DNA of 64,000 nt from an uncultured Clostridia bacterium. Lineage in GTDB: Bacteria; Bacillota; Clostridia; TANB77; CAG-508. The notes beneath the pieces are model-generated. The model was not told the DNA's origin, ran no database searches, and was given only the letters and a program-made list of their open reading frames with translations. The stretch is taken from NCBI GenBank assembly GCA_944387495.1, contig CALXFD010000001.1, positions 22,025 through 86,024 on the forward strand, given 5' to 3'. Below are positions 9,216 through 9,382 of this stretch, one piece after another. How positions within the stretch are numbered: position 1 is the stretch's first letter; every line of letters begins with the position of its first letter. The translations under genes were made by a program, and so were the position numbers.

Positions 9216-9382
9216 GTTCGAAAGGGGAATATATAATATTTTTATTATTTCTAAATACTGCGTAAGCGACCAAACGAGCGACAGCGAGTGCGATTGGAGC
9301 AACCTACCCTTTATTCTTTCAAAGGTTGCGACACACAAAGTATTTAGAAATAATAAAAATATTATATATTCCCCTTTCGAAC
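9216..9382 (-). repeat. Type B hairpin-enclosed GC-rich module, copy 1 (inside the pnp 3' region)
   Basis: Perfect 44-bp arms (9216-9259 / 9339-9382) around a 79-nt core (40 of 79 G+C by my count). Lies between the pnp stop (9401) and the terminator at 9176-9203. Confidence 0.9.

Follow-up and report, generated by a model that had tools for sequence, protein, structure and literature searches.

A repeated long-hairpin element beside pnp and gpr in uncultured Clostridia: a probable non-coding DNA transposon with a conserved core between variable, self-complementary arms

The DNA analyzed here, which we call the window, is a stretch of 64,000 nucleotides from an uncultured Clostridia bacterium (assembly GCA_944387495.1, contig CALXFD010000001.1), and it carries two copies, B1 and B2, of an element with two long complementary arms around a core. 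B1 occupies positions 9208 to 9385 when its short asymmetric tips are included (covariance model, 125 bits, E = 9e-31). It consists of a 44-nt left arm (9216 to 9259), a 79-nt core (9260 to 9338) in which the family alignment gives the order GCGTAAGCGACCAAACGAGC-loop-AGCGAGTGCGATTGGAGCAACC-loop-GGTTGCGACACACAA, and a 44-nt right arm (9339 to 9382); the left arm is 100% complementary to the right. B2 extends from 47713 to 47890 with tips as in B1 (123 bits, E = 3.9e-30), and its two arms (47721 to 47764 and 47844 to 47887), which are 98% complementary, enclose a 79-nt core (47765 to 47843) that aligns with B1 and with the family. Both copies lie on the + strand, by which we mean the strand of the family core consensus. 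An earlier note, made from the letters of this DNA alone, had described 44-nt arms and 79-nt cores at 9216 to 9382 and 47721 to 47887, and this layout was reproduced by alignment and by a repeat finder. Its finer observations on the two copies were reproduced as well: the cores differ at three positions, all within the loop of a GCAACCT/AGGTTGC hairpin; each difference between the arms of B1 and B2 is mirrored in the partner arm; A47725/C47883 is the sole arm mismatch of B2; and the copies have additional flanks in common, with GTAGAGTA preceding the left arm and GGC following the right arm.

The pnp gene, encoding polynucleotide phosphorylase and recognized by its Pfam PNPase domains, lies on the minus strand at 9401 to 11521, with its stop codon 16 nt from the tip of B1; a RecX-like gene is found on the other side of the element (8687 to 9130, minus strand). 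The gpr gene, encoding germination protease, has the same strand (47915 to 48850), with its stop codon 25 nt from the tip of B2. Downstream of B1, an AU-rich hairpin at about 9173 to 9203 on the minus strand (9-bp stem, -8.1 kcal/mol, followed by U7) is the likely pnp terminator; a consensus terminator scan skipped it because it has fewer than three G-C pairs. The proposal that B1 sits between the pnp stop codon and its terminator was therefore supported, and by position and orientation B1 would be cotranscribed with pnp on the minus strand. Upstream of gpr, a UvrA-like gene (49005 to 51846) is split into two open reading frames (ORFs) of 587 aa and 340 aa; the split recurs in other strains (582 + 340 aa, L122 to L124, where L numbers denote the loci fetched for comparison), and some of these genes are further broken (188-aa fragments).

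Folding of B1 and B2 gave -80 to -82 kcal/mol on either strand, compared with -31 +/- 3.7 kcal/mol for shuffled sequences (z = -12.7 and -14.7; 0 of 200 shuffles were equally stable). The only ORF spanning B2 is one of 62 aa with a TTG start on the minus strand, and it is not conserved. A search of the whole window against Rfam 15 at the gathering score returned two tRNAs only and no match to either element, and a search of 9150 to 9450 at E <= 10 returned nothing credible.

B1 and B2 were confirmed as members of a true repeated element, and the family was recovered in other genomes. When one genome per species was scanned, the core 22-mer AGCGAGTGCGATTGGAGCAACC matched more than 116 stretches of DNA, which, among the matches listed, came from at least 31 species-level metagenome assemblies (MAGs) of uncultured, AT-rich Clostridia; some of these assemblies have 15 copies or more. 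From the 22-mer matches, 122 copies were extracted, and a covariance model was built from 87 copies. The earlier note had proposed a covariance-model search for more copies, and when the fetched loci, about 0.87 Mb in all, were searched in this way, 136 hits had E <= 0.1, about three of them degenerate; the 136 include a few weak hits (two separate ones in L109) and one reverse-strand duplicate (L057). Within the 64-kb window, the model detected B1 and B2 alone. A literature search with the core 21-mer found nothing similar. A phage or plasmid origin was considered and rejected, as neither a scan of viral contigs nor distant blastn searches of phage and plasmid collections gave a family match.

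The anatomy of the element is uniform at its center and diverse at its flanks. The order of the core, namely, GCGTAAGCGACCAAACGAGC, a loop of 3 to 7 nt, AGCGAGTGCGATTGGAGCAACC, a loop of 18 to 26 nt (sometimes 35 to 109 nt), and GGTTGCGACACACAA, is nearly invariant. Elements are 167 to 260 bp long and have no coding capacity, and their length steps are not multiples of three. The arms, of 30 to 95 nt, are highly different between copies and self-complementary within each copy: 5761 Watson-Crick pairs were counted against 596 mismatches over the extracted copies. Several sub-families are distinguished by the sequences at their outer ends (GTTACAGTTCAG..., TTCAAGTTTCGAC..., CAATGCTGTCAAC..., and composites lying between GGGACATGGGGACGTAGATAATGTCCC hairpin modules); the outermost termini are constant within a sub-family and different between sub-families. 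For the two stretches of core not covered by the search pattern, mean pairwise identity was 0.90 and 0.99; for the arms, it was 0.60 over the inner 25 nt and 0.33 beyond. The core was retained in one orthologous pair with flanks of only about 73% identity. A center that is much better conserved than the arms of the hairpin is unusual. Variants of the core were also seen. About 10 copies (L021, L028, L037, L040, L080, L090, and others) share the same insertion of about 50 nt after GCGACCA, which has a hairpin of its own (CCACTGTAACAAGCAAAGCTTTAACAGTGG). A divergent relative at L055:6640-6880 (34 bits) retains just GCGAATGGAGCAATC-loop-GATTGCGACAGCAAAG and the terminus GTTACAATTCACAGC, with a different hairpin in place of the 5' half of the core; this relative suggests that there may be a wider superfamily with a modular core.

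The RNAalifold consensus places two helices in the core on the + strand. In the first, P2 (9270 to 9297 in B1), CCAA/TTGG closes ACGAGC-loop-GCGAGT, and the helix contains an internal tandem G·A and a bulged GCGA; three compensated changes were found in it (L052, L005:2996, and L106:1834), all in copies outside the 22-mer selection. The second, P3 (9299 to 9329), is the GCAACCT/AGGTTGC hairpin mentioned above, in which GCAACC/GGTTGC closes a variable loop of 18 to 109 nt. P3 is invariant among the 22-mer-selected copies, and four compensated changes from C:G to T:A occur in copies without the exact 22-mer. A P3 helix longer than 6 bp was considered and discarded, since just about 50% of copies are paired beyond that length. 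These findings alter the initial picture of the core, in which a 39-nt segment lacking self-complementarity and carrying four GCGA motifs was displayed as a single-stranded platform: three of the motifs are conserved in the family, the fourth, GAGCGACAG, lies in a variable loop and is not, and the segment contains the conserved hairpin CCAA/UUGG, ACGAGC-loop-GCGAGU, with its three compensated changes, so that the platform contains a conserved hairpin. Read on the + strand, P2 has the tandem G·A and GCGUAAGC is GNRA-like; both point weakly to folding of the + strand. The U·G changes in P2 (29 to wobble pairs versus 4 breaks) were not relied on for assigning the strand, because the 22-mer pattern fixed one strand and only the C-rich strand could vary; these changes are largely explained by base composition and copy selection.

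Direct repeats of 8 bp flank many copies. Perfect 8/8 repeats were found in 13.4% of copies, compared with 0.5% in a permuted control in which left and right flanks were shuffled between copies, and repeats matching at 7/8 or better were found in 27.7%, compared with 7.6%. A filled site and its empty counterpart were also identified: L074 reads ...CAATG AAGTTAAAA, then the element, then AGTTAAAA TTAATG..., and L048, the flanks of which are 96 to 98% identical to those of L074, reads ...CAATG AGGTTAAAA TTAATG.... More divergent empty sites are present in L109, in L083, and in the window itself at 52989 to 53021, and internally deleted derivatives retain their target-site duplications. The family thus shares with MITEs a non-coding length below 500 bp, terminal inverted repeats, an 8-bp duplication, and dispersed copies with presence/absence variation. 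On the strength of the 8-bp target-site duplications and the filled/empty pair, we consider the element to be probably a non-coding DNA transposon (MITE) in which two long complementary arms surround an asymmetric core of about 80 nt. It would be moved in trans by a DDE-type transposase encoded elsewhere. Some observations count against this reading: B1 and B2 themselves have asymmetric tips and lack a clean duplication of 8 bp in their flanks, and no transposase with matching ends was found in the fetched loci. An autonomous parent was likewise sought in these 0.87 Mb, which contained no matching termini 1 to 3 kb apart and no multicopy ORF. It would also be odd for the termini to vary between sub-families if a single transposase recognized the ends.

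The genes beside the copies are diverse. About 1600 neighboring ORFs were clustered in a search for an associated protein gene, and only housekeeping orthologues emerged; the recurrent neighbors were penicillin-binding proteins, AddA, GdpP, and ABC ATPases. The earlier note had treated the element as an RNA module linked to pnp and gpr, which did not hold; what was found instead were 8-bp duplications, presence/absence polymorphism, and unrelated housekeeping neighbors. The positions next to pnp and gpr are typical rather than special, because copies usually start about 16 nt past a stop codon. A specific association with pnp was rejected, as the recurrent neighbor of about 700 aa is a penicillin-binding protein and not PNPase. 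Strain-level absence of B1 or B2 was also rejected: every contig encoding an identical PNPase or GPR has the element. At the pnp locus of other metagenome assemblies, an N gap replaces B1 in L002 (4734 to 4935), and in L004 (5102 to 5320) B1 is collapsed into a shorter hairpin; both are most likely assembly artifacts at a long inverted repeat, and they call for caution in MAG-based counts of elements with long inverted repeats.

The copies are strongly biased in orientation and position. Relative to both neighboring genes, the + strand of the core is antisense at 66 loci and sense at 14 (p = 3e-9); in the antisense group, the median distance from the upstream stop codon to the start of the element is 16.5 nt. 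In most copies, as had been proposed for B1 and B2, the minus strand is therefore the one cotranscribed with the neighboring genes. Genes that are antisense to the usual orientation have a lower GC3 skew (0.06 to 0.13 versus 0.22 to 0.25), a difference of about 2 standard errors that weakly hints at an orientation tied to replication rather than to transcription. Such a tie would be explained if the element were a REP/REPIN-like or IS200/IS605-derived palindrome moved as single-stranded DNA by an HUH (Y1) transposase. The orientation bias, which is similar in strength to the preference of Firmicutes genes for the leading strand, would suit this origin, as would the skew difference itself and a GTAG motif that B1 and B2 have in their left tips. 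HUH transposition, however, leaves no target duplication, and the 8-bp duplications and clean filled/empty sites described above speak against it. In addition, the arms are long AT-rich terminal inverted repeats and not short sub-terminal hairpins, two copies in L051, separated by 1.5 kb, face opposite ways although the genes around them share one direction, and no RAYT or TnpA gene is present among the neighboring ORFs. We therefore regard an HUH origin as highly improbable. If the element is a MITE, as we prefer, the surviving copies would be mainly those situated just past stop codons with the + strand antisense, where they would be read through as a long 3'-UTR hairpin.

The mirroring of changes between the arms, first noted in B1 and B2, holds throughout the family. 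In eight orthologous pairs, 15 arm pairs were changed on both sides and are still Watson-Crick, against about 31 changed on one side, when fewer than one two-sided change would be expected by chance; at five inner stem pairs, both sides were changed in 13, 26, 2, 7, and 24 sequences. This is covariation of the kind taken as the mark of a structured RNA, and it is seen in the arms, in P2, and in P3, but a hairpin at the DNA level would yield an identical pattern. Mirroring is also seen within the window's own species, in contigs that all encode an identical GPR protein. Compared with the window, the B2 haplotype of L125 and L126 shows three mirrored substitutions (47729/47879, 47731/47877, and 47764/47844) and one mirrored 1-nt indel. 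At 47725/47883, four strains have G:C, the window and three others have A·C, and two have A:T; the mismatch that the earlier note had singled out as the only non-Watson-Crick position of B2 is thus a population intermediate between the G:C and A:T alleles. Divergence of the arm pairs between the B2 haplotypes is close to the neutral rate; as an argument for copying between the arms, this comparison was set aside, because it is based on few events and possibly confounded by a recombined divergent tract.

The mismatches and indels bear on the level at which this complementarity is maintained. Outside one conserved internal loop, arm mismatches comprised 116 G·T, 104 A·C, and 184 others, and the orthologous comparisons gave 11 G·T and 10 A·C; an excess of G·U is hence absent on either strand. 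Furthermore, both arms of B1 and B2 have a 13-nt deletion relative to the GTTACAGTTCAG sub-family. A helix selected as RNA should gain G·U pairs and should not acquire matched deletions, whereas both observations are accounted for if one arm serves as the template for the other. For these reasons, the lack of G·U preference and the mirrored indels, which are indirect evidence, we infer that arm complementarity is a property of the DNA and not a consequence of selection on an RNA helix. Such selection, which the earlier note had favored, is disfavored here and is not needed; the note had named palindrome maintenance at the DNA level as one of the findings that would undo its proposal, and the evidence points that way. 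A change or an indel in one arm would be copied into the other, the likely route being template switching in the quasi-palindrome at replication or repair of an extruded hairpin. That quasi-palindromes can be "corrected" by template switching is established as a mechanism of mutation (PMC7202029).

The constancy of the core calls for a separate explanation. Selection would hold it constant, either because it is needed in cis for mobility or because it has a strand-specific effect after insertion; it could be a cis-acting mobility site, a site to which protein binds, or a module that acts in a strand-specific way as RNA or as single-stranded DNA. One possibility is that the element is mobile but that an RNA function fixes its core, with the element acting as a 3'-UTR module read through on the minus strand (the long arm duplex determining RNase III sensitivity or stability, and the core serving as a platform for protein binding) or as a small antisense RNA transcribed from the + strand by its own promoter. 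The 66:14 orientation bias and the compensated changes (three in P2 and four in P3) also fit a function of the core at the RNA level, as do the start of copies about 16 nt past the stop codon, the location of B1 upstream of a terminator, and the conservation of the core far above that of the arms. However, the hints as to strand conflict: the structural motifs, that is, the tandem G·A of P2 and the GNRA-like GCGUAAGC, point to the + strand, and gene orientation points to the minus strand, on which the intermediate allele at 47725/47883 would be a G·U pair. A promoter-like TTGCGA-17-AATAAT, directed outward on the + strand, is found in B1 and in most copies and would suit an antisense RNA, but -10-like hexamers are about equally frequent at other offsets in the AT-rich arms, and we rejected it as an outward promoter because it does not stand clearly above the AT-rich background. 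Nor do the arms have the G·U excess that an RNA would lead one to look for, no Rfam match was obtained even at E <= 10, the U·G changes in P2 trace mostly to base composition and copy selection, and a perfect 44-bp RNA duplex would be cut rather than kept. Taken together, these points make an RNA function as the cause of core conservation unlikely, in our judgment.

Alternatively, transposition itself might be guided by structure, with a transposase that binds the folded core at the apex of a cruciform or hairpin and cuts where arm pairing stops. Any complementary arms could then be mobilized, and arms could lengthen by capturing flanking palindromes. This would account for a constant core alongside variable arms and even variable termini, for arm lengths of about 30 to 95 nt, for the core being intact in nearly all detectable copies, and for the composites, present at many loci, in which GGGAC-hairpin modules enclose an unchanged core with its inner arms. 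Against it, the termini are constant within each sub-family, as expected from plain common descent; at orthologous loci, mirrored changes appear in place, with no involvement of transposition; and 8-bp duplications are typical of ordinary DDE transposases that bind terminal repeats. To our knowledge, no structure-guided transposase of this kind is known, and none was found in the fetched loci. We judge this mechanism to be quite improbable. We tentatively entertain the idea, rather unlikely in our view, that the core of about 80 nt, with GCGUAAGC, the tandem-G·A hairpin, and the GCAACC/GGUUGC hairpin, is a functional folded module carried on interchangeable arms, the perfect pairing of which would be maintained by active copying of one from the other; the module would serve either as a handle for a structure-recognizing transposase or as a strand-specific RNA or single-stranded DNA retained by the host in 3'-UTRs.

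Other hairpin modules are present in the window. A second type occurs at 6376 to 6646 and at 17607 to 17873: its G+C-rich core of 121 nt is 92% identical between the two copies, and its arms of about 75 nt are almost wholly different between them and 100% and 75% self-complementary. It shares the design of a constant core with variable arms and was missed by the covariance model of the B1/B2 family. A third long-hairpin module (2471 to 2754) has 87-nt arms (99% complementary) and a 110-nt core with GGGGAC/GTCCC motifs. Hairpin modules with TTGGGGACGT flank the rpsO and thioesterase genes (11593 to 11697 and 12695 to 12726); elsewhere, they occur as lone palindromes of about 70 nt (for example, L069:2194-2262) or, at many loci, as brackets on either side of an element of the B1/B2 family. 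At 20383 to 20447, where L037 has an element of this family, the window has a 65-nt AT-rich perfect hairpin, the appearance of which suggests a bidirectional terminator and not the remains of an element. Three tandem 246-nt units that are 81 to 85% identical (40119 to 40856) presumably represent a repeat within a coding region.

What is new to description here is an abundant repeat family of uncultured, AT-rich gut Clostridia. Its mirrored arms are a general trait of a mobile hairpin element and not evidence for a regulatory RNA specific to pnp or gpr. On the practical side, assemblies collapse at these elements (L002 and L004), intergenic annotation is affected, and the copies might serve as strain markers. 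With more than 130 copies and with orthologous and population variants, the family is a natural data set that addresses how perfect long inverted repeats are kept up in bacterial chromosomes and why the center of a transposon, and not its ends, is conserved. Should the core turn out to function as RNA or to be what a transposase recognizes, the family would go beyond a plain MITE.

Several features of the family have precedents. A long stem-loop fold, cotranscription, and compensatory changes have already been described for bacterial MITEs such as bcr1 (PMC3184786). The bcr1 or group A repeats of the Bacillus cereus group are MITE-like, non-coding Firmicutes repeats of about 155 bp with short flanking direct repeats, as here, and, like the present elements, they vary in position between strains, are cotranscribed, and have a stable fold with compensated changes (PMC3184786). 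They differ in that their duplications are of 5 bp and their fold, which has two stem-loops, resembles a cruciform, compared with 8-bp duplications and a single 30- to 95-bp stem here; unlike bcr1, with which it has no sequence similarity, the present family has an asymmetric core that is much better conserved than the arms. The Correia/NEMIS repeats of Neisseria and the ERIC/IRU repeats of enterobacteria resemble the family as intergenic imperfect palindromes of about 100 to 170 bp; they form hairpins in the mRNAs of their neighbors, which can be processed, and may contain motifs that act as promoters or bind proteins (PMC3184786). In those repeats, however, the terminal inverted repeats are conserved and the center varies, which is the reverse of the situation here; they duplicate TA or lack an 8-bp duplication, and their hosts are Gram negative. 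Chunjie and other highly stable hairpin MITEs, described for Geobacter (PMC3184786), form a stable hairpin over nearly the whole element, as B1 and B2 do at about -80 kcal/mol, but Chunjie belongs to another taxon, has another sequence, and has not been reported to have a strongly conserved asymmetric apical core. REP and REPIN sequences, which are mobilized by RAYT, are also many-copy intergenic hairpin repeats, sometimes with compensated stems; REPs, however, are short and G+C rich, have conserved arms and no target duplication, and depend on Y1, none of which fits the present element. Template switching in quasi-palindromes of Escherichia coli and yeast perfects imperfect inverted repeats and leaves the same pattern of mirrored substitutions and indels (PMC7202029); it is a mutational mechanism and not an element, and its action on the present arms is putative. 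In kind, the element is ordinary; what distinguishes it from these systems is its inverted pattern of conservation, its mirrored indels, and its strong bias in orientation and position.
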